Positions 320 to 62,389 of a stretch of 64,000 nt of DNA are shown here, in pieces. The position numbers and the translations under genes are program-made. The stretch spans positions 640,001 to 704,000 of the forward strand of contig CAVYNY010000010.1 in the NCBI GenBank assembly GCA_963769935.1. The letters run 5' to 3'. Origin of the DNA: an uncultured delta proteobacterium (GTDB lineage Bacteria > Desulfobacterota > Desulfobacteria > Desulfobacterales > JAFDCJ01). Below the pieces are notes generated by a model. The model did no database searches. It was given only the letters and a program-made list of their open reading frames with translations, and was not told where the DNA came from. The first letter of the stretch is position 1. The number at the start of each line of letters is the position of its first letter.

Positions 320-401
320 GGGTTGGCCCGTTAGCCCGTTTATCCGTATGCCCGAATCTGCAAAACCGGCCGACCGGCGAACGGGTTAACCGGAAAACAG
401 G
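320..401. repeat. Intergenic palindrome of degenerate 8-mer repeats
   Basis: Left arm GGCCCGTT-AGCCCGTT-TATCCGTA-TGCCCG; right arm CCGGCGAACGGGTTAACCGGAAAACAGG is loosely its reverse complement. Confidence 0.6.
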
Positions 402-402
402 T

Positions 403-963
403 ATGCCCAGGCTTTACGTGGCGTTGACGCATTATCCGGTGGTGAACAAACGGGGCGACATCATCGCTTCATCGGTGACCAATCTGGATTTGCACGATAT
501 ATCGCGGGCGGCGAGGACCTTCGGGGCGAAGCGTTTCTATGTGGTAACGCCGCTTGTCGATCAGAAAATCCTGGTTGAAAAGATTATCTCACATTGGACA
601 AACGGCATCGGCGGTGTGTACAATCCGGCAAGGCGCAGCGCGCTGGAGCTGATCAAGACCAAAGATTCCATCGCTGATGCAGCTGAAGAAATTGAAGGCA
701 TTGAGAAAGTTTACCCGAAAACAGTTGTAACCTGTGCCCGCAGTTTTCCGTCAAGCATCAGCTTCAAAGAATTGCGTGATATTCTGCAGCTCGGCCGACC
801 GCACCTGCTGGTCTTCGGGACCGCCTGGGGCTTAGCCGAAACGTATATCAGCCAGGCGGATTACATTCTGGAACCGATTTCAGGCCAAACTGCCTATAAC
901 CATCTTTCGGTCCGATCCGCTGCCGGTATCATTCTTGATAGACTGTTGGGAACAAGAAAATAA
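403..963 (+). CDS. SPOUT-class SAM-dependent RNA methyltransferase (family often adjacent or fused to TrmD)
   Basis: LxHYPV, [10 protein letters not shown], FGTAWGL and [10 protein letters not shown] motifs; position between trmD and rplS. Confidence 0.85.
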
Positions 964-979
964 AGGTTTGGAGGAAAAA

Positions 980-1327
980 ATGAATAAGATTGAGCAACTC
1001 GAAAAGGAAAATATTCGCTTGGACATGCCCCGTTTTAAGCCCGGCGATACCGTTAAGGTCCATGTGAAAATAAAAGAAGGTGAAAAGGAGCGGATCCAGG
1101 CTTTTCAGGGCGTTGTGATCAGCAAGAAAAAGGGCTCGACGCATGGTACGTTTACCGTCCGTAAAGTATCTTACGGGATCGGCGTAGAACGTATTTTCCC
1201 GATGCATTCACCGGTCATCGACAGAATAGAGGTTATCACCAAAGGTCGGGTAAGACGCGCCAAAATCTACTATCTGCGCCAACTCAGGGGCAAAGCCGCC
1301 AGGATCAAGGAGAAGCGGTTCAATTAG
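980..1327 (+). CDS. rplS: 50S ribosomal protein L19
   Basis: [24 protein letters not shown]...[17 protein letters not shown]...[20 protein letters not shown] before ATG 980. Confidence 0.98.
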
Positions 1328-1333
1328 GTCAGG

Positions 1334-1936
1334 ATGGATTTGTGGCATTTTGAAAAAGAAGCCACCCGCAAGGGTTTCCGGGATATAGCGGGTATTGACG
1401 AGGCCGGCCGGGGTCCTCTGGCCGGCCCGGTTGTAGCAGCCGCGGTTATTCTGTCGGCCGCATTCGATGATTCCGAGGTTACCGACTCCAAAAAATTGAC
1501 GGCGTCCAAAAGGGCACGTCTGTATGAGCGGATTTATGCCCAGGCGGCGGCAGTGGGCATCGGCATAGTGGATCCGTCGGAAATAGATCGGATCAACATT
1601 TTGCAGGCTTCTTTGCTGGCCATGGCCATGGCGGTAAAAAACCTTGTCCCCCGTCCGGATTTTCTATTGATCGACGGCACCTTCCGAATCGCTTCCGACC
1701 TGCCCCAATTAGCCGTTATAAAAGGAGATGCTTTAAGCATCTCCATTGCTGCCGCTTCCATCATTGCCAAGGTCACCCGGGACCGTCTGATGCAGAACTA
1801 CCATCAATACTATCCGCAGTTTGATTTCCCGCAGCACAAAGGCTATCCGACCAAGGCCCATAAGGAGGCCATTCAAAAATTCGGCTGCTGCCCCATCCAC
1901 CGCAGGAGTTTTAGAGGCGTCAAGGAATACAGTTAA
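1334..1936 (+). CDS. rnhB: Ribonuclease HII
   Basis: GIDEAGRGPLAGPVVAAAV, DSKKL, IAAASIIAKVTRD, HKGYPT, HRRSF. Confidence 0.97.
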   Translation: MDLWHFEKEATRKGFRDIAGIDEAGRGPLAGPVVAAAVILSAAFDDSEVTDSKKLTASKRARLYERIYAQAAAVGIGIVDPSEIDRINILQASLLAMAMAVKNLVPRPDFLLIDGTFRIASDLPQLAVIKGDALSISIAAASIIAKVTRDRLMQNYHQYYPQFDFPQHKGYPTKAHKEAIQKFGCCPIHRRSFRGVKEYS

Positions 1937-2087
1937 ACCGGAAAATGCCTAAAATTGCGGTGTCGCTACACGCCATCTTTTTTATCAATTTAAAAAAGCT
2001 TGTTGCCTTTTAACTTAACGTGCTAAGGTTAATTAATTCGCCCTGCAATACAGCCTATTCAGGTTCTCATGGTTGGAACAATTTATT

Positions 2088-5473: not shown

Positions 5474-5496
5474 TGCTGGGCAATGCCGCTGCGGAT

Positions 5497-5640
5497 TGAC
5501 GAATGACTAATGTCGAATGAAGGAATTCTATCTGTCTTAAAAAGTTATCAAAAGACCGAGCGGAGCGACTTCCACAATTAGCCAATATTCAATATTCAGT
5601 TTTCATTTGATTGAGCTATCAGCTATGAGCTATGAGCTTA
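5497..5640. repeat. Intergenic heptamer palindrome, copy 1 of a dispersed element (copy 2 at 23279-23455)
   Basis: ATGTCGAATGAAGGAATTCTATCTGT (5510-5535) is identical to 23303-23328; GAATGAC-like left arm and AATATTC-like right arm. Confidence 0.8.
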
Positions 5641-6236: not shown

Positions 6237-6256
6237 TAATACTGTCGTGCATGCAA

Positions 6257-6500
6257 AAAATCTCAAATCCCAAATCTCAAATTTCAAATAAATTACAATG
6301 ACCAAAATAAAAAATTCCAAACCGGATCCAATCTGTTTCAGTCACTGCTTCAGATAAATACGCGATCCTTATATGCGAAAACACGAACATTTTAAATCAC
6401 GAAAAAAACACAGCTGCATATTCGTGATTTAATCGGTTTCGGTCATTGATTATTGTAATTTGAGTTTTATTTGTAATTTGGTGCTTGGAATTTAGAATTT
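6257..6500. repeat. Nested palindrome between convergent genes; inner 12-bp perfect inverted repeat may act as terminator
   Basis: Left arm of CAAATCT/CAAATCC/CAAATTT heptamers, right arm of ATTTG-type heptamers; inner TTAAATCACGAA (6392-6403) and TTCGTGATTTAA (6421-6432). Confidence 0.75.
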
Positions 6501-7569: not shown

Positions 7570-7830
7570 AAGCTACAGGGTGCAAGGTAGAAGACGGAAA
7601 GCAGAAGGTGAGAAGATAAGAAGCTAAGAGGCTGGGGGGCTGGAAGTCTAAAATGCTGGGAGTTTTGGGCTGTTCGCCTTCTTCCTTTTTCCTTAGGCCT
7701 TAAACCCCATACCTTTTTTTGTTATCCAGCATCCATCCAGCATCCAGTATCCAGTAACCCCTACCCCGCAACGCACAACCTGAAACTCGCAACCCGCACC
7801 CTGCAACGCGTAATCCGCAACCCGAATAAA
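7570..7830. repeat. Mosaic of 7-8-mer tandem repeats
   Basis: GAAGGTGA/GAAGATAA/GAAGCTAA octamers, ATCCAGC/ATCCAGT heptamers (7724-7756), CCGCAAC-type heptamers (7766-7825); the same modules recur at 26510-26738. Confidence 0.75.
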
Positions 7831-9038: not shown

Positions 9039-9115
9039 GTTGCGGGGTGAGACACTTTCAGTGCCAGCTGATAGTTCATAGCCGATAGCTGATAGTCCAA
9101 AAGAATAGATCTTTT

Positions 9116-18001: not shown

Positions 18002-18171
18002 CCAATTGCGTTGAGACGCAATTGGTTCGTTGTGAATTGTCTGTTGTCAGTTGTGTAAATGGAATTGCTCAACGTTTGCATCGGCGGGTTGCTGCTGTAA
18101 ATCTGCTTCTTGACACATCCGGCCACTATCAGCGAAAACAGAGCGACACTTCAAAGAATACTTCTAAACAT
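18002..18171 (-). pseudogene. Remnant of a lipoprotein gene with in-frame TGA in the signal peptide
   Basis: GAGGAG RBS, ATG 18171, MFRSIL*SVALFSLIVAGC (lipobox VAGC); the frame then runs into heptamer repeats and overlaps the asmA 3' end. Confidence 0.45.
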
Positions 18172-23278: not shown

Positions 23279-23455
23279 GGAATGACAAACGACGATTGTC
23301 GAATGTCGAATGAAGGAATTCTATCTGTTTTAAAATGTTTTCAAGCCGCAGCGACACGCGGCGCAAGCGACCCCGCAGCGTCAGGGCTTGCGCGACGTGT
23401 GCGCTGCGCAAGCGGCTTTCATAATTAGTCATTAGTCAATATTCAATTGTCATTT
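23279..23455. repeat. Copy 2 of the dispersed heptamer palindrome, carrying an extra 60-bp GC-rich hairpin
   Basis: 26-nt identity to 5510-5535; extra GCAGCGACACGCGGCGCAAGC...GCTTGCGCGACGTGTGCGCTGC at 23348-23407. Confidence 0.8.
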
Positions 23456-23494: not shown

Positions 23495-24045
23495 ATGACC
23501 CAGGAATTTGATCCCAGAAAAAGCTACCTGGCTGTTAAAGCCAACGAAAAGATGATTGCCTATGCCGGCTTTGCCGTGGTCTTCGAAGAAGACGGTAAAC
23601 GCAAGGAAGGCGTCGTTAAAATTTCATCTTTTCATCGCCCCTACGGCGGCGGATATCTGACGCTGACTTTTATTGTCGACAAAGGTCGGGACGACGCACT
23701 AAAACTCAACTTGAGAAGTTAGGCAAAAAAATTACGGAAGATTCACTCAGACCCATGCTGGGTAAAAACTTCGAAAGAATCGTCAAAGTCGACCTGGATG
23801 TGCTCGACGAAATCAAGGGATGGTACATAGAGGAAATTAATGTCTATTTTCGTACTCTCGCCGAACGGGAAAAGGTGCTGATTGAAGAAAAACTGCTGCC
23901 GGCTCTGGAATGCATCCTGCCCTTTAAGTTCGAAACGGTGGAATGGTGGCCGGCGGGCAAAGGAACCGAACCGCCGGCCGGCAAGGAAATCGCAGAGCAA
24001 AAATCGGTCAAGGGATTCTTTAGAAAGTGGTTTAGATCAGGATAG
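23495..24045 (+). pseudogene. Hypothetical protein split by an apparent one-base deletion near 23700
   Basis: The frame of ORF 23755-24045 is open upstream to at least 23701 (KTQLEKLGKKITEDSLRP); one more A in the AAAA run at 23701-23704 fuses both ORFs. Confidence 0.6.
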
Positions 24046-24250
24046 TAAGAAGTTGATTGTTGATAGTGAGTAGTTCATAGTTGATGGTAGGAGGAATGTA
24101 TTGTCATTATTTTATTTATCTAATAGAATTGAATCAACCAATGAATCTAATCAACCGCTAAATATACTTTCGGCTCATCTAATTTTAAAACTTTCGATTA
24201 TGTGCCGGCAACTATACACTATGAACTTTGTACTATGAACTATCAGCTTC
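24041..24250. repeat. Intergenic heptamer palindrome
   Basis: Left arm GTTGATA/GTTCATA-type units, right arm ACTATGA/ACTATCA-type units (reverse complement). Confidence 0.75.
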
Positions 24251-24262
24251 TCAGGAGACCGC

Positions 24263-24658: not shown

Positions 24659-25057
24659 ATGAAGAAATTACTGATCTTTCCGCTGTTGATGATATCGTTG
24701 CTTTCCTGTGCCCACGGCAAAACAGCCAATTTCCCCACCCTCGACGATCCAGCCGCCAACGCGCAGGTGTATGTCATTCGGGACAACAATTTTATGGGCT
24801 GGGGCTTTTCTTTGAAGGTGGCTTTGGACGATTCGATTATCGCCCGTCTTCGGTCGGGTGAATACGTTTCTTTTTATGTCAAGCCCGGATTCCATTCCCT
24901 GGGAATATCCGAACCGACCCTCACCGTTCCCCTTGAGAAGAGCAAAAAGTATTATTTCCTGATCAGTGCGGATTATACCAGTTTCGGATTCGAGCTCGAT
25001 CGCATCAGCGACCACCAGGGCGAGTACTGGCTTGAAAGGACAAAGCCGGTAGAATGA
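24659..25057 (+). CDS. Small lipoprotein, DUF2846-like
   Basis: MKK signal with lipobox LSC; A.VYVIR, L..GEY..F.V.PG.H.L pattern. Confidence 0.65.
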   Translation: MKKLLIFPLLMISLLSCAHGKTANFPTLDDPAANAQVYVIRDNNFMGWGFSLKVALDDSIIARLRSGEYVSFYVKPGFHSLGISEPTLTVPLEKSKKYYFLISADYTSFGFELDRISDHQGEYWLERTKPVE

Positions 25058-25058
25058 A

Positions 25059-25146
25059 AAGCAAAGCGCATAGCGCAAAGGGTTATCAATAAAATGAAAG
25101 CTTCATTTAAGTTTCCTCTTTGCCCTCTGCTCTCTGCGCTTTGCTT
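25059..25146. repeat. Heptamer palindrome between convergent genes
   Basis: GCAAAGC-GCATAGC-GCAAAGG facing TTTGCCC-TCTGCTC-TCTGCGC-TTTGC. Confidence 0.75.
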
Positions 25147-26490
25147 TTAAGCAACCAGCACCATATACACATCCGATACATTCGTCCGGGTAGGCCCGGT
25201 GATAATCAGATCTCCCAGCGGTTGAAAGAAGTGATAGGAGTCGTTGCGTCTGAGAAAGTCCAAGGCATCAAGGTCGTTGGCACGGGCCCTGGTTATCGTG
25301 CTGCCATCGGCGATAGCCCCTGCGGCATCGGTCGGACCATCCGTCCCGTCCGTGCCCCCGCTTAAAACGACGATATTTTCCATGCCGTCGATGATGATGG
25401 CCGACGCCAATGCGAATTCCTGGTTGCGGCCGCCTTTACCCTGCCCCTGAATCGTTACCGTGGTTTCTCCGCCGCACAAAATACAGGCGGGCGCTGGAAT
25501 CGGGTTCGCTGAATTGCGAACTTCTTTGGCAAAAGCCGCAAACATTTTGACCACCTCCCTTGCTTCTCCTTCCACGGTGGAAGAAAGAATCAATGACTGA
25601 TAGCCCTTCAACTGAGCCTCTTTACTCGCGGCGATCAAGGCCTGGATGTTGGTTCCCACCAGCTCGGAGTAACAGCGCCGGAAAACGGCATCACCCGCCT
25701 TGGGGGTATCTTCGATGTCGCCGGACAAACCCTGCCGAATGCGATGTTGTATGGATTCGGGAACCTGATTCCAGATGTCATACTTTTGAAACACGCCCCT
25801 GGCATCGGCAAATGTACTGGTATCCGGCACCGCGGGCCCGGATGCAATCACATTCAAATCATCTCCGATAACATCCGAGAGAATCAGGCTCACCACCGTT
25901 GCCGGATAGGCCAAGCGGGCCAACCCGCCCCCTTTGGCCCGGGAGAGATGCTTTCTGACGGTGTTGATTTCATGAATATCCGCGCCGCAGGCCAAAAGCA
26001 AACGCGTCACTTCCTGTTTGTCCTCGAGGGTGACCCCTTCGGCCGGAGCCACCAGCAAGGCGGATCCGCCGCCGGAAATGACGCAGATTACCAGATCCCG
26101 CTCGCCGGCCGCATTTACCAGCGATAGAACATCCTCGGCACCTCGAATTCCGCGATCATCGGGGACCGGGTGCCCGGCCTCATGAATGCGCACGTGCTGC
26201 AGCGGCAGACCGTGGCCTTCCTTGACCACGATCACACCATCTGATATCCGATCACCCAGCAGGCCTTCCAGGGCTTTGGCCATGGGCGCCCCGGCTTTGC
26301 CGGTTCCTGCCACCAGGATACGATCATAATCCGCAAATTTAAAACGGTGCTCGCCAATTTGTAAACCGTCCTCTACCGGTTTGACATAGCGCAGAATTGC
26401 TTCCACCGGATCTACAGCCCTGAGAGCCGCCTGAAAAATCTCCCTCGCATGCTGCCGCATTGTTTTAACCTGATCAGACCGTGTCGACAT
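25147..26490 (-). CDS. Glycerate 2-kinase (MOFRL/TtuD/GckA family)
   Basis: GKAG..MA, HPVPD, ISGGGSALL, INTVRKHLS..KGG.LA, SDV.GD, IASGP, GGETTV...G.G.GGRNQE, TDG.DG, TG.T.TNV.D. Confidence 0.92.
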   Translation of the reverse strand: MSTRSDQVKTMRQHAREIFQAALRAVDPVEAILRYVKPVEDGLQIGEHRFKFADYDRILVAGTGKAGAPMAKALEGLLGDRISDGVIVVKEGHGLPLQHVRIHEAGHPVPDDRGIRGAEDVLSLVNAAGERDLVICVISGGGSALLVAPAEGVTLEDKQEVTRLLLACGADIHEINTVRKHLSRAKGGGLARLAYPATVVSLILSDVIGDDLNVIASGPAVPDTSTFADARGVFQKYDIWNQVPESIQHRIRQGLSGDIEDTPKAGDAVFRRCYSELVGTNIQALIAASKEAQLKGYQSLILSSTVEGEAREVVKMFAAFAKEVRNSANPIPAPACILCGGETTVTIQGQGKGGRNQEFALASAIIIDGMENIVVLSGGTDGTDGPTDAAGAIADGSTITRARANDLDALDFLRRNDSYHFFQPLGDLIITGPTRTNVSDVYMVLVA

Positions 26491-26509: not shown

Positions 26510-26738
26510 TATTAGAAGACAGGGGACAGAAGGTGAGAAGCTGGGAGGCTGGGAAGCAAAACCAAAGCCGGCATCCAGTATCTAAAATTCTCGGGTCGGC
26601 CGTTTCTGGTAAAATTTTTGCCTTAAACCTTGCGCCTACAGCCTTTCACCTTTAGCCTTTTGATTTTTGCCTCATCCCCCATCCAGTATCCAGTATCCAG
26701 TATCAAGTATCCAGTATCAAGTATCCAGCATCGAGCCC
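26510..26738. repeat. Mosaic of 7-8-mer tandem repeats
   Basis: (ATCCAGT/ATCAAGT)n, 7-8 units at 26681-26736; GAAGGTGA-GAAGCTGG-GAGGCTGG octamers as at ~7604. Confidence 0.8.
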
Positions 26739-26742: not shown

Positions 26743-27744
26743 TTAAAGCGCTGCCATTCTATCAATCAAATCCACCACGCGATTCGAATAGCCCCACTCG
26801 TTGTCGTACCATGAGACAATCCTGACAAAGCCGTCCTGCAGGGATATGGTGGACAGCGCATCAAAAATACTGGAATGAGGATTGCCGATGATGTCGCTTG
26901 AGACCAGTGGTGCCTCACTGTATTCGACGACCTTTCGCATCGGACCTTCGGCAGCTTCCCGCACCGCCGCATTTACTTCTTCGACGGATGGCTTGCTCCC
27001 CAGGCGGGCCACCAGGTCCACGATGGAACCGTCCGGCACCGGAACGCGCATGGCCAGTCCGTCCAATTTGCCCTTCAATTGCGGCAGCACCTTGCCGACC
27101 GCCCGGGCCGCACCGGTGGTCGTGGGGATAATATTCTCACCTGCAGCGCGGCTGCGCCGGAAATCTTTGTGGGGGACATCGGCCAGACGCTGGTCGTTGG
27201 TATAGGCGTGGACCGTGGTGATGAACCCTTCCTCGATGCCGAAAGATTCGTCCAGAATTTTGGCAATCGGTGCCAGGCAGTTCGTGGTGCAGGACGCATT
27301 GGAAACGATGCGGTGTTCCGGCTTGAGCTGATCGTCGTTGACGCCAAGTACGATGGTGGCATCGATTTCATCTTTGGCAGGTACCGTGAGAATCACTTTG
27401 CCGGCGCCGGCCGCTAAATGCTTTTCCAGAGCCTTTCTTTCGCGAAACACGCCGGTTGATTCGATGACAAAGTCAACCCCTAAATCCTTCCAGGGTGTTT
27501 CAGCCGGGTCCCGCTCGTCGGTCATGACAACTTTTCGATCGTCCACATACATGGCATCGGCAGTGGCCCGCACCTCCTTTGGAAAGATACCCATCACCGT
27601 ATCGTATTTCAGCAGGTAGGCGAGTTGCTCGTTATCAAACAGGTCGTTGATGCATACGACGTTCACATCACCGCGATCACTTAAAATGCGAAAGACGCTG
27701 CGGCCGATGCGGCCGAAGCCGTTTATTCCGATGTTTATAGCCAT
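26743..27744 (-). CDS. gap: Glyceraldehyde-3-phosphate dehydrogenase, type I (canonical)
   Basis: INGFGRIGR, ESTG, SNASCTTNC, HAYTNDQ, IIPTTTGAA, MRVP, WYDNEWGYS. Confidence 0.97.
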   Translation of the reverse strand: MAINIGINGFGRIGRSVFRILSDRGDVNVVCINDLFDNEQLAYLLKYDTVMGIFPKEVRATADAMYVDDRKVVMTDERDPAETPWKDLGVDFVIESTGVFRERKALEKHLAAGAGKVILTVPAKDEIDATIVLGVNDDQLKPEHRIVSNASCTTNCLAPIAKILDESFGIEEGFITTVHAYTNDQRLADVPHKDFRRSRAAGENIIPTTTGAARAVGKVLPQLKGKLDGLAMRVPVPDGSIVDLVARLGSKPSVEEVNAAVREAAEGPMRKVVEYSEAPLVSSDIIGNPHSSIFDALSTISLQDGFVRIVSWYDNEWGYSNRVVDLIDRMAAL

Positions 27745-28766: not shown

Positions 28767-29226
28767 GCGCCACCTCCTTTTTGAGAGTATTCAAGTGTTT
28801 GGATGAGTTCTTAAATAGTTAAAACTGCTTGAGCGTTGCGCTGAAGAATCTGCTGAGGAATAAATCTGACAAGGTTCGAACGGCACTGCTGACAAATGGT
28901 TATTGGTTGCCGGCAATACATACAGACACAAGGCACGGGAGGCAGAACGCAAGAAAAGGCCGAAGGAGCGTTTCACTCGAAGAGCGCTGCATTTAATGAG
29001 CGTTTCTCTTGAGGAGCACTGCGCAAATTTCATTTGCTCCGTTTGAGGAGCGCTTCGCTCTATGCAAAAGCAGACGGCTGAGGGGCCTTAGTATCAACAG
29101 TAACAGCGCACGCGGCACTTTGCACTTCAAGTCCTGACAAGGCGCTCCTTTAGTCTATCGCTAATCGAGCTCTTCCCCTGCTGTCCTCTGCCTTCTGTCT
29201 CCGGTCCCCCGTCCTCTTTTATTTTG

Positions 29227-30769: not shown

Positions 30770-30990
30770 TTCGTATTTATCGTATTTATTGTTTGGATCG
30801 TTGAGAACGTTATGTCCGTTTTGATCGTAAGAACGTTTAGCCTTATTTCCTCTCTGACACCTGAGACCGCGAGTCTTTTCACTGGCATATGCTGTCAGCT
30901 CTCTGCGCTTTGCCCTCTGCGCTTTGCCAAGTCCAATCCGCAACCCGCATATTTCCAGCTTCGCCATTCCGCATTCAGAATTCAATTCAC
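30770..30990. repeat. Mosaic of 7-9-mer repeats inside the mla operon
   Basis: GATCGTT-type nonamers, TCTGCGC/TTTGCCC heptamers and CCGCAAC/CCGCATT heptamers between mlaD and mlaC. Confidence 0.7.
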
Positions 30991-34006: not shown

Positions 34007-36109
34007 ATGTCTAAAAACCTATACATTGCAACCATGGAACCGAGAGGCGGCAAATCGGTAGTGGCACTCGGCATCATGGAATTGCTGTCGCGGCGTTTGA
34101 CTAAGATCGGATTCTTTCGTCCGGTTATTCCCGATGTTGAGCGGGACAATAACATTCAACTGATTCTGAGCAGGTATAATTTAAAATTACCATATGAAAA
34201 GATGTACGCCTACCATCACGAGGATGCTCAGCATATGGTAGCCGTCGGGCAGTACGATGCGCTTTTAAAGAATATTCTAAGCAAGTATAAGGCGCTGGAG
34301 AGTCAATGTGATTTCGTTTTATGCGAAGGCACGGATTACACCGGAGTTTCCTCGGCCTTCGAATTCGACTTCAATGCCGACGTCGCCAATAATCTGGGGT
34401 GCCCGATTCTCACGGTGCTCAACGGACGCGGAAAATCACCGCCGGAAATCATGGAGGGGATACGGTTTGCCCGTGAATCTTTTGACAGCTGCGGATGCAC
34501 GATCCTGGCGACGATCGTCAATCGCATAGCGCCGCAAAGCCTGGAGGCCATCAATGCGCATCTTGCGCAAGAAGCAGTTGCCGGGGTACCGGTATATATT
34601 CTGCCTGAAGCGCCTTTGCTCGGCAGGCCATCGGTCGGCGAAATCGCAACTGCCCTTGACGGCCGGCTTCTCCAGGGTGATCTCCATCGCATGCACCGCG
34701 AGGTCCTGGATATAAAAATAGCCGCTATGACCCTGCCGCATTTTCTGGATTATATCACGGAAGGCACCCTTGTAATTGCGCCGGGCGACCGCTCTGATGT
34801 CATTCTGGGCAGTTTGGCGGCCGCGGCCTCGGAAACCTATCCAAATATCTCCGGCATACTGCTAACCGGAGGCTTGACGCCCGAGCCGCCGGTTCAAAAA
34901 CTAATGGAAGGTTTCAAGAAATCGGCGCCGATACCCATCTTTAGTGTCGGCACCGACACTTACACAACGGCGGTGAATGCCGGTTCGGTGAGAGCCGCTC
35001 TCACCCCTCAAAACCATCGCAAGATTGCTGCCGCTTTGGGAGTCTTCGAATCCCATGTAAACATTCCGGAGCTCGAAGATCGGATCGCGGTGGTTCGTTC
35101 CAAGCGAGTGACCCCGATCATGTTTGAATACGAACTCATCGAACGGGCCAAGGTTCACCGCCGGCACATCGTGCTGCCTGAAGGCTGTGAAGAGAGAATT
35201 CTGCGGGCGGTAGAAATACTTTTGCGGCGCCGGGTGGCAGATATTACCATATTAGGAAATTCGGAGGAAATTAAATATAAAATCAATTCCCTGGGGCTAA
35301 ATTTGGAAGGAGCCCAGATGATTGATCCCCTGCGGTCGGAACAGTTCAACGATTATGCAGACACCTACTACGAGATGCGCAAGCATAAGCGCATATCCCG
35401 TGAAATGGCCCGAGATACCATGACGGATGTCAGCTTTTTCGGAACCATGATGGTTCACAAAGGCGCCGCCGGCGGCATGGTATCGGGAGCCGTCCATACT
35501 ACCAGCGAAACCATCCGCCCGGCCTTTCAGATAATTCGCACCCGGCGCGGAGTTTCCATCGTTTCCAGCGTGTTTCTCATGTGCCTGGCCGACCGGGTTC
35601 TGGTGTACGGCGACTGTGCGGTGAATCCGGATCCGGACGCCGGGCAGCTGGCCGACATTGCCATCAGCTCGGCTGAAACCGCCGAAATGTATGGTATCGA
35701 GCCCCGTATCGCCATGTGCTCATATTCCACCGGACAATCCGCTAAGGGAAAGGATGTCGACAAGGTGCGTGAAGCCACCCGGCTGGTCAGGGAACGTCGT
35801 CCTGATTTGAAAATCGAAGGGCCCATCCAGTATGATGCCGCCGTGGATGCCGGGGTTGCCAAAACCAAATTGCCCGCAAGTGAGGTGGCCGGCCAGGCAA
35901 CGGTATTCATTTTCCCCGATCTTAATACCGGCAATAACCTTTATAAGGCGGTTCAACGATCCGCCAATGCCGTTGCCATCGGGCCGGTCCTGCAGGGTCT
36001 GAACAAACCGGTCAACGACCTGAGCCGCGGATGCACGGTAACCGACATCGTCAACACGGTGGCCATCACGGCGATACAGGCGCAGGCAGTTGTGTCGGAA
36101 GGCAGATGA
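34007..36109 (+). CDS. pta: Phosphate acetyltransferase (long form with AAA/DRTGG N-terminus)
   Basis: GKS, EGTD, PGDRSD, IVLPEG...RIL, SGA.HT, GDCAVNP.P, EGP.QYDAA, FPDLNTGN, QGL.KPVNDLSRG. Confidence 0.97.
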   Translation: MSKNLYIATMEPRGGKSVVALGIMELLSRRLTKIGFFRPVIPDVERDNNIQLILSRYNLKLPYEKMYAYHHEDAQHMVAVGQYDALLKNILSKYKALESQCDFVLCEGTDYTGVSSAFEFDFNADVANNLGCPILTVLNGRGKSPPEIMEGIRFARESFDSCGCTILATIVNRIAPQSLEAINAHLAQEAVAGVPVYILPEAPLLGRPSVGEIATALDGRLLQGDLHRMHREVLDIKIAAMTLPHFLDYITEGTLVIAPGDRSDVILGSLAAAASETYPNISGILLTGGLTPEPPVQKLMEGFKKSAPIPIFSVGTDTYTTAVNAGSVRAALTPQNHRKIAAALGVFESHVNIPELEDRIAVVRSKRVTPIMFEYELIERAKVHRRHIVLPEGCEERILRAVEILLRRRVADITILGNSEEIKYKINSLGLNLEGAQMIDPLRSEQFNDYADTYYEMRKHKRISREMARDTMTDVSFFGTMMVHKGAAGGMVSGAVHTTSETIRPAFQIIRTRRGVSIVSSVFLMCLADRVLVYGDCAVNPDPDAGQLADIAISSAETAEMYGIEPRIAMCSYSTGQSAKGKDVDKVREATRLVRERRPDLKIEGPIQYDAAVDAGVAKTKLPASEVAGQATVFIFPDLNTGNNLYKAVQRSANAVAIGPVLQGLNKPVNDLSRGCTVTDIVNTVAITAIQAQAVVSEGR

Positions 36110-36591
36110 CAGATGATAAACTCCAGGTTTCAGGTGTCGGGTGTCAGGTGTCAGCCCCGCCGCCGGCCAAAACAACGGCCGGTCTGATCATAAAAGAAAC
36201 TTTTGGAAATCGGACACAGTTGGATTTAATATCACGCCCACTTCGTTAGAGCTCACAGAGACCGCAGAGAACATTTTCCTTTCGCCGCAGGCGCCTGTAA
36301 ACCCAGACCTCTGTGATCTCTGAGCGCTCTGTGTGAGATGTAGTTTCATATGAGGTGTCAGCGCTGCCGTTGTCCATCGGGGCAGCCGGTTGGATTGAAT
36401 AAACAACTTGTCGTATGAAATTTAATGAGATCAAACGTCATTTTGGGGCTAGAGTTAATGGCTGGCGGGAGTGGTTATTAACCACGGTTGCAAATGTCGA
36501 TCAGACCGGCATTTGCTTTGGCCGGCGGTGGGGCTGACACCTGAAACCCGAGAACTATAATCTATCATCTGACATCTGTTCTCTGTCATCT
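36103..36591. mobile_element. Composite nested palindromic element (MITE/BIME-like), copy A
   Basis: 45-bp inverted arms at 36145-36189 and 36499-36543 (4 mismatches), outer CAGATGA/TCATCTG arms, inner CTCACAGAG...CTGTGTGAG palindrome. Confidence 0.7.
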
Positions 36592-36610
36592 AACAAATCA
36601 GAGGTACCAC

Positions 36611-37834: not shown

Positions 37835-38207
37835 GGATGTTCGTTAAGATCGTCCCAGTTAAACAAAAGACGAAAAGGTTTAACGGGATAAATTTTGACC
37901 GTTAGGATCGTTGAGATCGGTTGAATCGGTTGGATCGTTAAGAACGGAGGCATCGTTGGCTTGGTTGATGATGTTGATTAAATTGATTTTCAAATTCCCG
38001 CTTCCAACTTCCCACTTCAAAAGTGGCACTGCTCTCTGTCTTTTGTCATCTGGTTTCTGTCTTCTGCTATCGAACTATTGAAAGCCACAGACAAGTTCTT
38101 ATGTTAACGATAAAGATGCGGCAATGAAGTATAGCAGCGATGGAATAATGGCCTAGGGATAAATTCTTTTTCAAAACGCCAATACTCCATCACTCCAGTA
38201 CTCCAGG
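37835..38207. repeat. Nonamer/octamer repeat mosaic with REP-like hairpin CCCAGTTAAAC...GTTTAACGGG
   Basis: 37841-37884 matches 46027-46070 at 43/44 nt; GATCGTT nonamers; TACTCCA octamers at 38183-38205. Confidence 0.8.
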
Positions 38208-42134: not shown

Positions 42135-42425
42135 AATCGTTGGGATCGTTTTGTTCGTTGGATCGTTTGGATCGTTTTGATGGTTTGAGTCGTTTTGATG
42201 AGTTTGAGTCGTTTTAGGTTCCGGAAAAGATTTTTTTAGTCTAAATCAAATATTGATGGTTTCATAAAAAGTTCCGAACTCGTGGCCTTGGTGAAATATT
42301 GACAGAAAAGTGGAAAAACTGACCTTTTACATGACTATTAAAATCCGATAGAATCCCTTGTCAACGATCCCAACGATCCTAACTACCCAAACGATCTAAA
42401 CCATCTAAACCATCTAAACGAATTC
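42135..42425. repeat. Nonamer palindrome with a weak inner terminal-inverted-repeat element
   Basis: Left arm of GATCGTTTG-like units (42136-42216), right arm of AACGATCCC/AACCATCTA units (42362-42422); inner imperfect IR at 42253-42272 and 42322-42341. Confidence 0.8.
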
Positions 42426-42450: not shown

Positions 42451-43884
42451 ATGGCCTTTCCCCCCAACAAGACCAAAATCGTCTGCACCATCGGACCGGC
42501 TTCGGATTCGCCGGCAACCCTGCAGGAAATGATTCAAGCCGGCATGAATGTGGCGCGGCTGAACTTTTCCCATGGTGATTTTCAAAGCCACCGGGAAACG
42601 ATTAAAAAAATACGGACCGCATCTGAAGCTGTCGGAAAACGGATCGCCATCATGGCGGACCTGCCGGGTCCCAAAATGAGAATCGGCGAGTTGGCGGAAG
42701 AACCCGTCGAATTAAAGGCCGGCGATCCTTTTACCCTCACAACCGAAGATATCGCCGGTGATGCCGCGCGCGTTTCGGTGAGCTTCGCCCGGCTTCCCAA
42801 AGCAGTGAAGCCGGGCGATCGATTGTTTCTGAATGACGGCTATATTCAGATAGAAGTAACGGAAGTAGAAGGTGCCGAGGTGCGCTGCAAGGTGATTGTG
42901 GGCGGACAGCTGCGTTCCCGCAAGGGCCTTAATCTGCCCGGCATCGATTTGGGGATCAGCGCTTTTACGGATCACGACCGTGAGTGCCTCAAATTTGCCC
43001 TGGAAAACGGGGTGGACGCCGTCAGCCAATCTTTTGTGGAAACCGCCGCAGACATCACCGCCGTGCGGCAAGCGGCGGCCGAGACGGGACAGTGACCCGT
43101 TTATTATCGCCAAAATCGAACGCGCCGGCGCTCGCAGTCATCTGAAAGCGATTCTGGAAGCCGCCGACGGCATCATGATCGCGCGCGGCGATTTGGGCGT
43201 GGAAATACCGATAGAGCAGATTGCAGTCGCCCAAAAGGATATTATGCGTGCAGGCCAATATGTGCGGCAAGCCCGTCATCACCGCCACCCAGATGCTGGA
43301 ATCCATGACCGGCAACCGTCGCCCCACCCGCGCGGAGGCCACCGACGTGGCCAACGCCATCCTGGACGGCACGGACTGCGTGATGCTCTCCGGCGAATCC
43401 GCCATGGGCCAGTACCCCGTGGAATCCGTATCCATGCTGTCACGAATTGCCGCCGCCATCGAGCCCTATCGCACGTCGATGTCGGTCAGAGAAGCACTTG
43501 CATTCCGATAGAGAAGAAGACAAAGTCAGGATGAAAGATCTGATTGCCATGAGCGTTGAAACCACCTTAAAGCGGATCACGCCGCCGACCGTCATTGTGC
43601 CCACTCACAGCGGTGCCACCGCCCGAAGCATAACCCGCTTCCGCCTGCCCGTCTGGATCACGGCCGTCAGCTCGCAAGCCAAGACCTGCCAGGATCTCAT
43701 GTTTTCCTACGGGGTCTTTCCTGTTTGTGAAAAGGAACATCCGGAGAACTGGAGAACCTGGACTAAAAACTGGCTCGCCAGCCAGGGCCTTGCCGGGGAT
43801 CTGGTGGTCCTGACCGAAGGACCGTCAGCCAGGCGTCCCGACCGCAATAATCGGATGGAAATTATCGATCTTACCAGGCAGTAA
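42451..43884 (+). pseudogene. pyk: Pyruvate kinase interrupted by three apparent +1 frameshifts (possibly sequencing errors)
   Basis: TKIVCTIGPAS, ARLNFSHG, DLPGPK in the first frame; IIAKIE and [13 protein letters not shown] in the second; [35 protein letters not shown] in the third; C-terminus back in the first frame. Confidence 0.9.
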
Positions 43885-44420: not shown

Positions 44421-44730
44421 ATTTCAGGTGTCAGCTGCTGTACGCAGCGGTTTGCCTGCCTTGGGAAGGTGATCAGTTTGATCGACATTGACCCATGCCT
44501 CATACTTTCAACCGTAGGTCATCCTCAGGAGCTTTGCACCGGATGTCTCATATGAAACTTCCTTAAATTCGATGCCATTTTTACGAAGTGTCTCACCGCT
44601 GAGAGCGCAGAGAGTGAAATTATTTAACTTTTCTTTCTCGGCGTTCTCCCACCGGGGCGTAGGCCCTATGGGCCAGAGGCGGCGGGCTCTGCGGTGAACT
44701 ATTATGTTTCTTTTTCGATCAGACCGGCCT
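44421..44730. mobile_element. Composite palindromic element, copy B (inverted relative to 36103-36591)
   Basis: TTTCAGGTGTCAGC (44422), GATCGACATT (44480), CTCATATGAAACT (44547), CACCGC...GCGGTG palindrome (44594-44696) and GTTTCTTTTTCGATCAGACCGGCC (44706) are reverse complements of copy A modules in the same order. Confidence 0.7.
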
Positions 44731-44734
44731 CACA

Positions 44735-45060
44735 CGCAAAGGCCTCTTTGATCCGCTCCGGAAACACGGCCCGGATAATACACCCCCCGCGCCACAGCCT
44801 GGTATATCGTTTTGAAGGCCGACCTTGGCGGCGATCCCCTGGAAGATGGACTTGACGTGGAGCCAGGCAGCGGCGGCACCACGGGCATGATGCTCGGACC
44901 ATGCCGCGCGCCTTCCTCCCCGCGGAAATGCCCGTGCCCATATAAAGGACGGCGCGCGAGGCGAGTTCCTTGAGCCTGCTTTCAGTTTCCAGATAATAGG
45001 AATTGCCGCCATCGATGATGATATCGCCTGCCTCCAGCAGAGGAGCGAACTGCCGGATCG
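44735..45060 (-). pseudogene. gnd: Degraded 6-phosphogluconate dehydrogenase fragment
   Basis: PLLEAGDIIIDGGNS...GTGIS, frameshifted AW.HVKSIFQGIAAKV, then a jump to WRGGCIIRA.F..RIKEAF; N-terminus, middle and C-terminus missing. Confidence 0.85.
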
Positions 45061-45191
45061 TCAAAAAAGAGCCGCATTCGACTTTACAATTAAGATATGA
45101 TGAATACATTGGCAGCATTATGAACCGGCGAGGCCGGAACCGAAATGTAATCTAACCGCCAAAAACACGAAGAAAAAAAGGGAGTGTAAAA

Positions 45192-46019: not shown

Positions 46020-46160
46020 GTTTGGATCGTTAAGATCGTCCCAGTTAAACAAAAGACAAAAAGGTTTAACCCCGATGAAATAAGGGCAACAGAGATTTCA
46101 TTGGGCAAGCGGGATAAATTTTGATGGTTTAGATGGTTAGAACGCTTAAGATCGTTTGGT
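46020..46160. repeat. REP-like hairpin containing a nested 40-bp hairpin insertion
   Basis: Same sequence as 37841-37898 but with CCCGATGAAATAAGGGCAACAGAGATTTCATTGGGCAAGC (46071-46110) inserted. Confidence 0.85.
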
Positions 46161-46290: not shown

Positions 46291-46872
46291 CTATTTCCCC
46301 ACAAACTCCCCGTTTTTAAACGTGCCTTCCTGTTTCCTGCCGTCAGGATAAATTAAAGTGCCCTGCCCGTTTTTTTCGCCGTCCTTAAATTCCCCGATGT
46401 ACTCGCGGCCATCGGGATAGGTCAGGGTGCCTTGACCGTTTCTTTCGCCATATTGAAATTGGCCGACATATTTGCGGCCGTCGGGATAGATCATGGTCCC
46501 CTGACCGTGGCGCTGGTCGCTTTTAAATTCTCCGATATACTTTCTGCCATCAGGATAGGTCATTGTCCCCTGCCCGTTTCGTTCGCGGAACATCCAGTGA
46601 CCCTCGTAAGTGGTGCCGTCGGACTGGGTAGAGGTGCCCTCTCGGATCTCGCCATCTTCCCAGACACCGACGATTTTTCGGCCGCCGGGCATCAGCAAAA
46701 CGCCCTCCCCGTTTCGGAAGCCATCTTTGAACCCTCCCGTATACGTGTGGCCGGTGGAATAGACCATGGTTCCCTTGCCGTTGACGCAATTCCCGGCGGT
46801 ACATTTGTCCTCGGCCGCAGCCAGCGGAACCAGGCAATAAATAAGCAGTATAACGATCAAAAATTTTTTCAT
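46291..46872 (-). CDS. Secreted MORN-repeat protein
   Basis: Signal peptide, C..GNC.NG.G, 6-7 repeats of G.GT..YPDG.KY.G.FK.G. Confidence 0.92.
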   Translation of the reverse strand: MKKFLIVILLIYCLVPLAAAEDKCTAGNCVNGKGTMVYSTGHTYTGGFKDGFRNGEGVLLMPGGRKIVGVWEDGEIREGTSTQSDGTTYEGHWMFRERNGQGTMTYPDGRKYIGEFKSDQRHGQGTMIYPDGRKYVGQFQYGERNGQGTLTYPDGREYIGEFKDGEKNGQGTLIYPDGRKQEGTFKNGEFVGK

Positions 46873-47571: not shown

Positions 47572-47847
47572 CAGATTATCTTCGTAAAAAAAGTTCCGGC
47601 TCCGTAAGTTAAGGATCTGAAATGTCCCATTTAATGGCACCGTTATCGGTCAAAGGAATGTTATCGAACAACCGCAGCAAAAATCAAGAACAACCTGAAC
47701 GAGAGCCGCAAACTTAAAATTAATATAGCATCCCGGCACTTGTACCTCGTACCTCGCAACACATATCTCTTCGTCTCAGCTCCTTTACGCTCTGCTTTAT
47801 GGCGCAATGCCCTATGTTCATCCACCGCAACCTGCAACACGCCTCCG

Positions 47848-56438: not shown

Positions 56439-56464
56439 TTTTTCCGGACCCGGCGGCGGCCGCA

Positions 56465-57964: not shown

Positions 57965-58045
57965 GTCCTGACCATAAATAATCTCAACAATCATAACGAT
58001 CATAACCATCTAAACGCCCATAACCTTCAACACCATCTTAACCCG
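57965..58045. repeat. Nonamer tandem repeats
   Basis: AACAATCAT-AACGATCAT-AACCATCTA-AACGCCCAT-AACCTTCAA. Confidence 0.7.
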
Positions 58046-59270: not shown

Positions 59271-59406
59271 TTAAATGCCTAAAGTGCACTAAATTGCCTA
59301 AAATGCCTAAAATTAAACTGTCGTTTCACTCCATGGTGGAATAATTAAAACTGATCCGCCGCAGGCGAACCATCATTTTAGGCACTTTAGACATTTTAGG
59401 CATTTC
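59271..59406. repeat. Nonamer palindrome between the two pntA parts
   Basis: AAATGCCTA-type units (59273-59314) facing TTTTAGGCA-type units (59376-59405); AAAATGCCTAAAATT also occurs at ~1942. Confidence 0.85.
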
Positions 59407-59428
59407 ATAAAATAAAGGAGCAAAAGAT

Positions 59429-59719
59429 ATGTCAATCGGACTACTATTTTTCGTTTTTGTTCTGGCCATCTTTCTGGGGGTCGAGCTCATCAGCAAAGTG
59501 CCGTCCCAGTTGCACACGCCCTTGATGTCGGGCACCAATGCCATATCCGGTATTACCATTGTGGGTGCGCTGACCGCCACCGGCAGCAGCACTGACCTGC
59601 TGGGCACCATCCTGGGAACCATCGCTGTGATTTTCGCCACCATCAACGTGGTCGGCGGATATATGGTCACCAATCGCATGCTGGCAATGTTCAAGCGCAA
59701 AGACGGAGAAAGCAAATGA
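59429..59719 (+). CDS. pntA: NAD(P) transhydrogenase alpha subunit part 2 (membrane)
   Basis: KVP..LHTPLMSGTNAISG, INVVGG..VT.RML.MF. Confidence 0.95.
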   Translation: MSIGLLFFVFVLAIFLGVELISKVPSQLHTPLMSGTNAISGITIVGALTATGSSTDLLGTILGTIAVIFATINVVGGYMVTNRMLAMFKRKDGESK

Positions 59720-61104
59720 CGGATTACACCCCAGGCCTGGTAGACTTTGGCTACATTGTGGCGTCGATTCTCTTTATCCTCGGTATTAAGATGCTCGGCA
59801 AGCCGCAACGCGCCCGCATGGGAAACATGGTTTCAGCGCTGGGCATGCTGATTGCGGTGGTGGCCGTAATGTTTGAATGTTGCCTTTCTTTTGAATGGGT
59901 CGTTGTCGGCCTGATAATCGGCTCCCTGATCGGGGTGATAGCCGCCCGCAAGGTCCAAATGACGGGCATGCCCCAGATGGTAGCTGTCTTAAACGGCTTC
60001 GGCGGGATCGCGAGCTTGCTGGTCGGCTGGCAGAACTATCACAGTCAACCGGACAGCACCCTGTTTGTCAAGGTCGCGGTAATGCTTGCGGTGTTGATCG
60101 GCGGGGTCGCTTTTTCCGGCAGCATGGTGGCTTATGCCAAACTGGCGGGCCGAATCTCCGGTCGGCCTGTCCTGTTCAAAGGACTGCAATGGATCAACGC
60201 CGCGATTATCGTCATAATAATAGTCTGCGGTGTCTTCCTGGGCTATCATCCGACCGGGGTTAACTCTTACGTGGCGTTTGTCGTGATCATGGTCCTGTCG
60301 CTGACCCTGGGCGTATTCGGCGTTATTCCGATCGGCGGCGCAGACATGCCGGTGGTGATCGCCCTTTTAAACAGTTATTCCGGTATGGCGGCCTGTGCCG
60401 CTGGATTTATCATCTTAAACAACGTGCTGATCGTCGCCGGCTCCCTGGTGGGCGCCAGCGGCGTGATACTGACCGGCATTATGTGCAAGGCCATGAATCG
60501 TTCCCTGACCAACGTCCTGTTCGGCGGTCTGCATTCCGGCGGCGCCAAAGCAGGCCAGACCCAGGTCCAGGGTGAACCCAAACCCATCACCCCCGAAGAT
60601 GCCTATTACATTCTGGAGGCAGCCCGATCGGTGGTGATTGTGCCCGGATACGGCATGGCCGTAGCCCAGGCTCAGCACGCAGTACGTGAACTGGGAGAAA
60701 TCCTCGAAAAAAACGGAGCGGAGGTGCGCTATGCGATCCACCCCGTTGCCGGCCGCATGCCCGGCCACATGAACGTACTGCTGGCGGAAGCCAACGTACT
60801 CTATGAGCAGCTGGCTGAAATGGACGACGTCAATCCCATCATGGAAACGGTTGATGTCTGCATGGTCATCGGCGCCAACGATGTGGTCAATCCGGCTGCC
60901 CGCGAGATCGAGTCCAGCCCGATTTACGGCATGCCGATCATCAACGCGGACAAGGCCAAAACCGTCATGGTGCTCAAACGATCCATGGCGGCGGGTTTTG
61001 CCGGCGTTGACAACCCGCTCTTTGTCAAGGAAAATACGCGCATGCTGTTCGGCGATGCCAAAGCTACCGTGCAGCAGCTGGTATCCGAATTTAAGGAAAC
61101 CTAG
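59716..61104 (+). CDS. pntB: NAD(P) transhydrogenase beta subunit
   Basis: MT.MPQMVA, PIGGADMPVVI.LLNSYSG, VPGYGMAVAQAQH, HPVAGRMPGHMNVLLAEA, GANDVVNP. Confidence 0.97.
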   Translation: MTDYTPGLVDFGYIVASILFILGIKMLGKPQRARMGNMVSALGMLIAVVAVMFECCLSFEWVVVGLIIGSLIGVIAARKVQMTGMPQMVAVLNGFGGIASLLVGWQNYHSQPDSTLFVKVAVMLAVLIGGVAFSGSMVAYAKLAGRISGRPVLFKGLQWINAAIIVIIIVCGVFLGYHPTGVNSYVAFVVIMVLSLTLGVFGVIPIGGADMPVVIALLNSYSGMAACAAGFIILNNVLIVAGSLVGASGVILTGIMCKAMNRSLTNVLFGGLHSGGAKAGQTQVQGEPKPITPEDAYYILEAARSVVIVPGYGMAVAQAQHAVRELGEILEKNGAEVRYAIHPVAGRMPGHMNVLLAEANVLYEQLAEMDDVNPIMETVDVCMVIGANDVVNPAAREIESSPIYGMPIINADKAKTVMVLKRSMAAGFAGVDNPLFVKENTRMLFGDAKATVQQLVSEFKET

Positions 61105-61520
61105 TTTAAGCTGATAGCTCATAGCTTATAGCTCATAGTCGATAGTTGATAGCCGATAGCCGATAGCGAAAAGTAGAAGATATAAGGTTTCGCGAACTCG
61201 GAATTCGGTATCTATCGATTGCGGATTGGACGAAGCAGAGCGCATAGGGCAAAGCACAGAGCATAAAGATAGATGTTGATTAAGTTGATTGGGTCTATTG
61301 AGTTGATCAGGTTGACCGGGGTGAATAAGTTAACGGGATTAAATGGATATAACCCATTAAACTTAGTCATCCAATCAACCTAAACAGATAATCGACCAAG
61401 TAGAAGATCTCAACGATCCTAACGATCCAAACCAACACAACGATTAAAACGATCTCAACGATCCAGACGATCTAAACCATCTGACATCTAAACCACCAAA
61501 ACGATCTCAACAAACCAACC
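61105..61520. repeat. Large mosaic of heptamer and nonamer repeats with inverted arms
   Basis: GCTGATA/GCTCATA/GCCGATA heptamers x8 (61110-61167), GCAGAGC heptamers, GTTGAT units facing ATCAAC units, AACGATC.. nonamers (61411-61515). Confidence 0.85.
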
Positions 61521-61525
61521 CGGCT

Positions 61526-62287
61526 ATGCAAGAAAAAATTGCACAAATAGCGGCCAAAATTAAGGAAGGCGGCAAGAATGTTGTTTTCACCGGTGCCGGG
61601 ATATCGACCGAAAGCGGCATTCCGGATTTCCGCAGCCAGGGCGGGATCTGGGACAAATTCCGCCCGGTCTATTTTGAGGAATTCATGTCTTCGCGGGATG
61701 CCCGCCGGGAGTACTGGCGGCGCTGGGTGGCGCTTTACCAGGGTATCGTCCGGGCCAAACCGAACCCGGCCCACCGGGCACTGGCCGAATTGCACAACAT
61801 GGGCCTGCTGCAGGCGGTCGTCACTCAGAACGTCGACGGTCTGCATCAGCAATCGGGACTGCCTGACGAAAAAATTATCGAACTGCACGGCAACACCCGT
61901 CGCATTCGCTGCATGACCTGCCGGGAGATTTTCCCCGTCGCTGATATCCGGCAGCGATTAGAGGCGGGGGATACGGCACCGGAGTGTGATTGCGGCGGTT
62001 TTTTAAAGCCGGACACCATCTCCTTCGGCCAGGCTATGCCCGCCGCGGAAGTTGAAAAAGCTGCCGTCCTTTCCCGGGAAAGCGACTTTTTCATGGTGGT
62101 GGGCTCAACCCTGGTGGTCCAGCCGGCTGCCCACATGCCTTTTTTTGCCAAAAATAACGGCGCCTTTCTGGCCATCATCAATCTGTCGGAAACCCCGTGC
62201 GATGAAATGTGCGATGTGCTTATCCGGGAAAAAGCCGGGCAGGTGCTGCAGGAAATAATCGCCGCAGTGGCAGGCGCGGTTGATTGA
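61526..62287 (+). CDS. cobB: NAD-dependent protein deacylase (Sir2 family)
   Basis: FTGAGISTESGIPDFR, PN.AH, TQNVDGLH, ELHG, CxxC...CxC zinc site, VGSTL.V.PA. Confidence 0.93.
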   Translation: MQEKIAQIAAKIKEGGKNVVFTGAGISTESGIPDFRSQGGIWDKFRPVYFEEFMSSRDARREYWRRWVALYQGIVRAKPNPAHRALAELHNMGLLQAVVTQNVDGLHQQSGLPDEKIIELHGNTRRIRCMTCREIFPVADIRQRLEAGDTAPECDCGGFLKPDTISFGQAMPAAEVEKAAVLSRESDFFMVVGSTLVVQPAAHMPFFAKNNGAFLAIINLSETPCDEMCDVLIREKAGQVLQEIIAAVAGAVD

Positions 62288-62389
62288 GTTGATTGCGTTT
62301 GTTGCGTTTGTTGGGTTGATGGAGTATATTGAGTTCATTAGGTTGCTTGGGCCCTCATCGGGTTTATTCCGACAACAATTTTATGATTC

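Follow-up and report, generated by a model that had tools for sequence, protein, structure and literature searches.

The window, i.e. the whole 64-kb stretch of DNA analysed here (G000:C10:640001-704000), belongs to an 8.0-Mb assembly with 51% GC, and its gene content is that of ordinary metabolism (NCBIfam). The subject of the analysis was the intergenic spacers, many of which consist of degenerate tandem units of 7, 8 or 9 nt (arrays), frequently with one array (arm) facing its reverse complement. An earlier reading of the sequence, referred to as the original prediction, had listed 22 such sites and placed them inside operons; the pta-ackA, pntA/pntB and mlaA/mlaE/mlaF gene names agree with NCBIfam. 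Spacers were defined with a simple custom gene caller, by which AT-rich small genes were missed.

Each listed site was compared with 200 dinucleotide shuffles for periodicity and with 100 shuffles for inverted arms. A periodic run of 7, 8 or 9 nt, reached by no more than 3.5% of the shuffles, was detected at 21 of the 22 sites; at 44421 the periodicity was not significant (P 0.135). Genome-wide, 1154, 559 and 322 intergenic arrays with the periods of 7, 8 and 9 nt were found, compared with 19, 24 and 20 in locally shuffled spacers. The corresponding densities were 668, 324 and 186 per Mb in spacers and 16, 10 and 30 per Mb in coding DNA. After merging, 2091 arrays remained, located in 1264 of 5229 spacers.

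Inverted arms reached by none of the shuffles were determined at nine listed spacers (6257, 23279, 24041, 25059, 29175, 36103, 42135, 59271 and 61105). The arms at 320 were marginal (P 0.04), and the remaining 12 spacers carried lone arms or arms from different families. The first and last arrays were inverted matches in 134 of 528 multi-array spacers, compared with 19 (maximum 32) in 200 permutations, and alignment gave inverted pairing in 18.9% of spacers versus 3.4%. Inward-facing pairs numbered 89, of which 84 had loops shorter than 400 nt, compared with 5 outward-facing ones. Nesting was computed on long-range stems, as strict arrays had yielded no usable pairs. Two or more stems were present in 52 of 1027 spacers, and the stem pairs were nested in 39 cases, crossed in 10 and side by side in 7. 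The architecture is real and most sites are partial. The original prediction is therefore partly confirmed: its arrays and their polarity stood, its self-nesting holds as a tendency (39/56), and its nested palindromes were recovered at under half of the listed sites.

The strand bias it described was found genome-wide as a left/right polarity fixed for each unit family: a family shows one version of its unit in left-hand arrays and the reverse complement of that version in right-hand ones. For example, AATATTG was detected 47 times as left and 7 times as right array, and AATATTC 3 and 46 times, respectively. The order is not always a G/T-rich arm followed by a C/A-rich one: in the AAAATGCCT and AAATTCC families the A/C-rich arm comes first. 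Enrichment of stop codons was rejected as the cause of the polarity, the fraction of stop triplets being 0.533 in the units and 0.527 in shuffled ones. The predicted abutting of stop codons was clear: the nearest array was no more than 10 nt away at 30.7% of 1323 stop ends, compared with 5.6% of 1205 start ends. Arrays were rarer between divergent genes (125 of 845 spacers) than elsewhere (1139 of 4384).

The genome contains seven TIGR02436 four-helix-bundle genes, all of them with 7-9-mer arrays alongside and five with inverted arms. A set of 96 loci was assembled from 5 loci of the own genome, 2 further ones and 89 of the better-scoring among 171 genus matches; the TIGR02436 cut-off was passed by the cargo at 7/7 own loci and in 23/23 genus genomes. 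The resulting layout, here called a cassette, is a 5' arm, a four-helix-bundle (TIGR02436/PF05635) or GxxExxY gene and an inverted 3' arm. Inverted arms were determined at 78 of the 88 four-helix-bundle loci with full flanks, compared with 6% in the swapped-flank control, and in intact cassettes the mode was 4-5 units per arm. In all 84 mapped cases the gene pointed in the same direction as the host gene upstream of it. For the cassette protein of a congener, the best named relatives came mostly from Desulfobacterales. GxxExxY genes (TIGR04256) have 8- and 9-mer arms of their own; an intact one at G000:C8:188559 lies among long direct repeats without simple inverted arms. Both of these cargo types had been named correctly in the original prediction, while a third one, Y1/RAYT (REP-associated tyrosine transposase, REP being repetitive extragenic palindromic sequences), was rejected, since arms were seen at none of the 8 Y1 loci (of 11) that were read by eye. 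A search of the own genome for other armed cargo, made without a Pfam scan, returned four-helix-bundle genes, unmatched host genes and spurious open reading frames (ORFs).

The arms of these cassettes correspond to the arrays in the spacers. A unit from the relatives' arms was identical to that of 871 of the 2091 arrays (116-126 with shuffled units), and the polarity agreed in 663 of 820 cases. GxxExxY arm units matched 75 further arrays exactly, compared with 6 for shuffled ones, and many of the commonest arrays lacking an exact match were one letter off a sampled unit. With blastn (E<=1e-4), 14 of the 23 window spacers queried matched cassette arms of relatives with 84-94% identity over 32-69 nt, i.e. 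beyond the unit itself.

Each protein clade had its own unit in the clade tree, which was a quick IQ-TREE run. Within one genus such a match may reflect shared descent; therefore, 80 relatives of one clade from other taxa were compared, 77 of them with full flanks. Inverted arms were present on both sides of the gene at 70 of these 77 loci. A unit with at most one mismatch from GCTGGAT was found at 59 of the 77, under 12 phylum labels, and at none of 83 loci of other clades; with at most two mismatches the counts were 74/77 and 11/83. In cross-phylum gene pairs the protein identity was 66% and the identity at fourfold-degenerate sites 0.282, with 0.259 expected, indicating that silent sites are saturated though the unit was kept. 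In the unit of this clade, which reads CTnGATR, positions 1, 2, 4 and 6 are nearly fixed, and 3 and 7 are free. The clade repeat occurred in 19 of 117 genomes of the phylum with the family and in 1 of 83 without it (kin are not independent); a reversed control pattern, itself another arm family, gave 20/117 and 0/83. Only the three repeat-richest of 201 genomes, G000, G067 and G135, were found to carry the cognate gene (>=68%).

The presence/absence variation expected for mobile units at orthologous spacers was observed. Cassettes of one clade occupied different junctions (L014, L129, L139; L145, L156, L158), and different clades occupied the same junction (L127 and L144; L132 and L160; L013 and L014). 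At pta-ackA, a four-helix-bundle gene lies between arms in L013 and L014, the L013 arm family is present without a gene in L003 and L007, and L015, L016 and L020 have short armless spacers. The pntA1-pntA2, pntB-cobB and mlaD-mlaC spacers of congeners carry differing arm families or almost nothing, and arm-free junctions were found among the orthologues of L129 and L039. About eight gene fragments were identified in spacers of the own genome, most of them adjoining arrays of the cognate type. The underlying search at E 0.01 matched 19 spacers versus 0 reversed controls, known genes and some artefacts included; the artefacts, caused by over-long query ORFs, were left out of the remnant count. 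One remnant, still between its cognate arms, has lost the interior of the gene by deletion, so that the first codons run on into the last ones. A 6-nt spacer on contig C9 was rejected as an empty site; it is a remnant, the arm of which has become part of the upstream ORF. Arms that now form C-terminal codons of the host gene upstream, and so change its end, were seen at G000:C9:226254 and L039. As a separate observation, the ackA downstream of the filled cassette in L013/L014 is 52% identical to that of the window and pta 76-80%, which suggests that ackA was replaced at this junction.

A gene-less element of about 210 nt bounded by arm units has spread recently. It has 28 near-full core copies with a median identity of 90%, begins with CAGGTGT units and ends with GTTTCATATGAG; the copies (in the window 36145-36354 and 44545-44720) have at least three interchangeable cores and occur in chains. 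Its 63-nt left part was found in 68 near-full copies (median 93%), with matches in 21 of 23 genus genomes. A direct 10-nt repeat surrounds 36146-36352. Two RNA runs were made up of contigs from related strains; one contig (run X9, about 95% alike) lacks 36146-36352 as well as 36439-36609, which may represent an empty genomic allele and has no bearing on RNA processing. The proposal of non-autonomous elements thus applies to this element, and most arrays are best read as decayed cassettes.

The arrays are probably decayed remains of cassette arms, and each arm probably constitutes a row of putative binding sites for its own protein. Intergenic heptamer repeats are a known kind of feature; their origin in cassette arms is well-supported, and the proposal of a single mechanism instead of independent slippage is supported. 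A promoterless cassette would land directly behind a stop codon and be read from the host transcript. At each of the two ends a five-subunit ring would bind the arm, every subunit taking one unit, most likely in the form of duplex DNA, and the cassette would be moved by a helper enzyme provided in trans. The gene could subsequently be lost by deletion between short repeats while the arms persist, and later cassettes landing in old arms would produce the nesting. One unit per subunit is inferred from the 4-5 units per arm and from the five chains in each of the solved relatives, 2RLD and 2GSC. The monomer was predicted with low confidence (predicted local distance difference test 63), and its best fold matches were 2RLD and 2GSC, all with E above 0.001. 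It is conceivable, although we would not call it probable, that these are a widespread, undescribed class of mobile cassette in which the ring reads the 4-5-unit row at each end by a protein-to-unit code with dozens of clades, each having its own 7-, 8- or 9-mer, that most intergenic heptamer repeats of bacteria, Xanthomonas GGGAATC and the arms of 23S rRNA intervening sequences (IVS) among them, are what is left of such cassettes, and that GxxExxY genes share the design.

Several results weigh against the cassette origin. No four-helix-bundle gene or remnant was found inside the 64-kb window, the genome holds about 2000 arrays versus 7 genes, many families have no cognate gene in the assembly, and 1145 of the 2091 arrays had no exact match to any sampled arm unit. 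The cognate gene was not found in the assemblies of G168, G041, G196, G226 and G130 despite 12-51 repeat matches, and the genome counts given above include dependent kin. Units per array ranged from 1 to 27. Arms were absent at L048, L112, L151 and L154, all of one clade, and at some other loci. The two arm-free junctions that were read, both diverged, showed no visible target duplication. No mobilising enzyme could be linked, as fusions were sporadic among 76 longer homologues (7995 candidates scored); recurrent fusion to a nuclease, a recombinase or a reverse transcriptase (RT) was not seen there. A recurring fusion of the four-helix bundle to NUDIX (PF00293) was observed among the longer homologues (P0003, P0004, P0005, P0009). 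The arm duplexes were more stable on the sense strand at 57/88 and 50/77 loci, an uncontrolled comparison that leans to RNA.

The latter points to a variant in which the same cassettes act as RNA, the arms pairing in the transcript, RNase III cutting the stem, the ring binding the released RNA and an RT in trans reinserting it. A precedent (PMC4990558) is the 23S rRNA IVS of Coxiella burnetii, a four-helix-bundle gene between complementary ends with ORF decay by deletion, where 2-3 GACAGAT heptamers stand 5' of the ORF; the same unit forms the 36103 arm of the window. The Coxiella IVS differs in lying within rRNA and being cut by RNase III; the present sites are operon junctions, and all those of the window lie between protein genes. 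Avd of diversity-generating retroelements is also alike, being a pentameric four-helix-bundle barrel akin to S23 proteins, all five protomers of which contact RNA, with flipped-out bases bound between protomers, as far as the accessible parts of 10.1101/2023.10.23.563531 and PMC10053308 describe it. However, Avd works with a linked RT, template repeat (TR) and variable repeat (VR), and none was linked to the cassettes: RT matches lie away from the 7 genes, TR/VR were not searched for, and Avd was matched by neither profile nor fold search. The genome does hold RNase III (rnc) and 10 RT matches, but both are common enzymes. The paired arms fold well (z -3.5 at 6255-6498 and -4.0 at 59273-59405). 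Co-orientation and the scarcity of arrays between divergent genes would suit a transcript, but co-orientation is equally explained by the need for a host promoter. No excess of G-U over A-C was detected on the sense strand, either in host spacers (372 vs 343) or around intact genes (145 vs 140, 129 vs 147 and 40 vs 51). The variable positions of paired units matched at 0.645, compared with 0.624 after unit order was shuffled. As both arms keep the motif with no G-U excess and little covariation, binding sites at two DNA ends fit better than a stem selected for pairing, and the RNA route appears less likely. The absent G-U bias, the slight covariation and the complete spacer turnover between congeners also speak against the selected RNA-structure layer offered in the original prediction.

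Oriented intergenic heptamer arrays with a patchy distribution are also known as cyanobacterial short tandemly repeated repetitive sequences (STRR). As in bacterial heptamer simple sequence repeats and STRR, intergenic tandem 7-mers were far above chance here; an origin by slippage independent of other genes was not found. If polymerase slippage made the arrays and the host retained them as a structural layer of its RNA or DNA, the four-helix-bundle genes would merely insert into them. This would suit about 300 arrays per gene and the variable copy number, and slippage has been proposed for heptamers (cited in PMC4692102, as its available text has it). However, slippage predicts neither fixed polarity nor inverted cognate partners, neither a clade-tied unit across phyla nor fixed positions within units, and not the near-absence of arrays from genomes without the family; nor are the spacers conserved between congeners. 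We regard it as improbable. MITEs (miniature inverted-repeat transposable elements) and REP/RAYT systems share with the arrays inverted ends, intergenic sites near stops, nesting and gene-less copies. In a further reading, an ordinary transposase (Y1/RAYT, IS110 or another) would move MITE-like elements whose ends are the arms, with the small genes as passengers, and the 28 near-full core copies of the gene-less element and a layout common to two unrelated gene families would agree with that. In contrast to MITEs and REP/RAYT, the ends here consist of degenerate arrays with a periodic unit, no catalytic site is known in the cargo, target duplications were not visible at the diverged junctions read, and the Y1 genes read were not flanked by repeats. 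A passenger would not retain a clade-specific unit across saturated distances, and most arms lack near-identical dispersed copies, so that this explanation is improbable as well.

The paired architecture itself is already published for one Xanthomonas family. According to the parts of Rehm et al. 2015 (PMC4692102) that are available, Xanthomonas GGGAATC and Nostoc GGGGA(C/T)T are intergenic degenerate heptamers, mostly of four units, and Xanthomonas campestris pv. campestris (Xcc) has 70 inverted pairs, the G-rich arm standing directly after stops and few of the repeats lying between divergent genes. There, each genome has one unit family; here there are dozens, with 8- and 9-mers in addition. 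That article interprets the repeats as G-quadruplexes; XCC0516, which encodes the four-helix bundle of PDB 2GSC, goes unnamed in its main text. The title of the XCC0516 structure paper, as given in the reference list of PMC10053308, mentions five bundles. An array at XCC0516 was looked up as a prediction, which was borne out on the 5' side: row 15 of supplement file 2 of PMC4692102 gives a 4-unit array 6 nt after XCC0517, overlapping the annotated XCC0516 start, and no 3' arm is given there. The TAACTGA repeats of Beggiatoaceae, Cyanobacteria and Bacteroidetes (MacGregor, PMC4679880) are likewise patchy oriented intergenic heptamer arrays of 2-6 units; these are direct repeats with a possible translational role, the word 'intervening' is absent from that article, and the available text draws no link to four-helix-bundle genes. 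In the literature searched by titles and abstract starts, with most subscription papers and bioRxiv supplements outside coverage, such arrays were linked neither to intergenic four-helix-bundle genes nor to a clade-specific unit.

An excess of intergenic heptamers in bacteria has been noted for decades without a mechanism, and an origin in cassettes would explain heptamer repeats. For the four-helix-bundle family, two structures with five chains have been solved and no function is assigned; the clade-specific unit provides matched protein-sequence pairs that are testable by a simple binding assay. The remains occupy about a quarter of the spacers of the genome, including those of core operons. 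They can take the place of stop codons and C-terminal residues and therefore shape operon junctions. The sites of the window are collected in Table 1.

Table 1. Arms, empty cassettes and dispersed elements in the spacers of the window
Position	Strand	Feature	Evidence or remark
322..396	+	8-mer arms of the GTTGGCCC type: left 322-340, right 363-396	L037/L038 four-helix-bundle clade unit; 85%/34 nt to L037 arm
5494..5638	+	Arms of three families: GAATGAC/GAATGTC left, including GAAGGAATTC tail, 5494-5532; CAATATT right, 5583-5608; AGCTATG right, 5614-5638	Unit match, periodicity, blastn
6255..6498	.	Empty L144/L160-clade cassette: left arm 6255-6323, right arm 6436-6498	blastn 87%/69 nt, 86%/63 nt; fold z -3.5
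inside 6255..6498	.	Inner CACGAAA-type hairpin ~6380-6432, resembling GxxExxY arms	By eye
7603..7824	+	8-mer AGAAGGTG left arm 7603-7643; right-type ATCCAG 7723-7759 and CCGCAAC 7753-7824; unpaired	Unit match, periodicity, blastn
9066..9095	+	Lone GCTGATA left-type arm	Periodicity
18029..18054	+	Weak lone 7-mer arm 3' of stop at 18001	P 0.01
23293..23455	+	CGAATGT left arm plus tail 23293-23335 (L127 clade); right arm 23424-23455	84%/43 nt
24041..24251	+	Paired 7-mer arms 24041-24089 and 24211-24251; stop at 24045 inside left arm	Periodicity, pairing
25057..25148	.	Paired GCAAAGC/GCTTTGC arms between convergent stops; L120/L128 clade	Periodicity, pairing, blastn
26528..26736	+	Unpaired: 8-mer left arm 26528-26557; long ATCCAGT right arm ending at 26736 (C20/L125 clade)	86%/64 nt to L125 3' arm
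28955..29214	+	L109-clade arm 28955-29017 and right-type CTGTCCT arm 29181-29214	Unit match, blastn
30771..30928	+	mlaD-mlaC spacer: 9-mer arm 30771-30811 and GCTCTCT arm 30891-30928	Congeners carry other families
36098..36595	+	pta-ackA nested set: outer CAGATGA arms (pta stop inside; right arm 36555-36595), inner CAGGTGT arms 36124-36154 and ~36536-36555	Four-helix-bundle gene here in L013, L014
36145..36354	+	Dispersed element of ~210 nt without a gene, direct AGGTGTCAG units at its borders; core with GxxExxY-type 9-mers	blastn copies
37897..38206	+	9-mer GATCGTTTG left arm 37897-37959; right-type TTCCCAC 37986-38022 and CAATACTC 38172-38206; unpaired	Unit match, periodicity, blastn
42136..42421	+	Paired 9-mer arms 42136-42215 and 42361-42421; L043 clade	Periodicity, pairing, blastn
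44545..44720	-	Dispersed module akin to the 36145 element, with 24 copies near full length	blastn
46020..46138	+	9-mer left arms 3' of stop at 46019	P 0.035
47739..47756	+	Short lone 7-mer array	Periodicity
57977..58010	+	Lone 9-mer right arm	Unit match, periodicity
59273..59405	+	pntA1-pntA2 empty cassette, AAATGCCTA clade: arms 59273-59316 and 59374-59405	93%/45 nt, 94%/32 nt to L129 arms; fold z -4.0
61109..61519	+	pntB-cobB spacer: AGCTGAT left arm 61109-61167; 9-mer arms 61275-61315 and 61406-61519	Unit match, periodicity, blastn
62279..62339	+	9-mer GTTGATTGA left arm, cobB stop inside; unit of the genome's own C16 four-helix-bundle cassette	Unit match, periodicity, blastn

Some further features of the window were observed in parallel. 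The pyruvate kinase gene at 42451-43884 is in pieces, with one base near 43091-43093 absent from the contigs of all four runs; an assembly error or a recent frameshift is possible. Two short neighbouring ORFs at 23495-24045 resemble a single gene interrupted by a stop at 23722, and a fragment of a 6-phosphogluconate dehydrogenase gene (44702-45118) adjoins the dispersed module 44545-44720. A dispersed repeat of about 230 nt at 62676-62909 has 5 near-full and 48 total matches in the genome. The unannotated ORF 46291-46872 contains a 69-nt tandem repeat of 3.3 copies (46361-46586), and two type I glyceraldehyde-3-phosphate dehydrogenase paralogues are located in tandem at 26743-28742.

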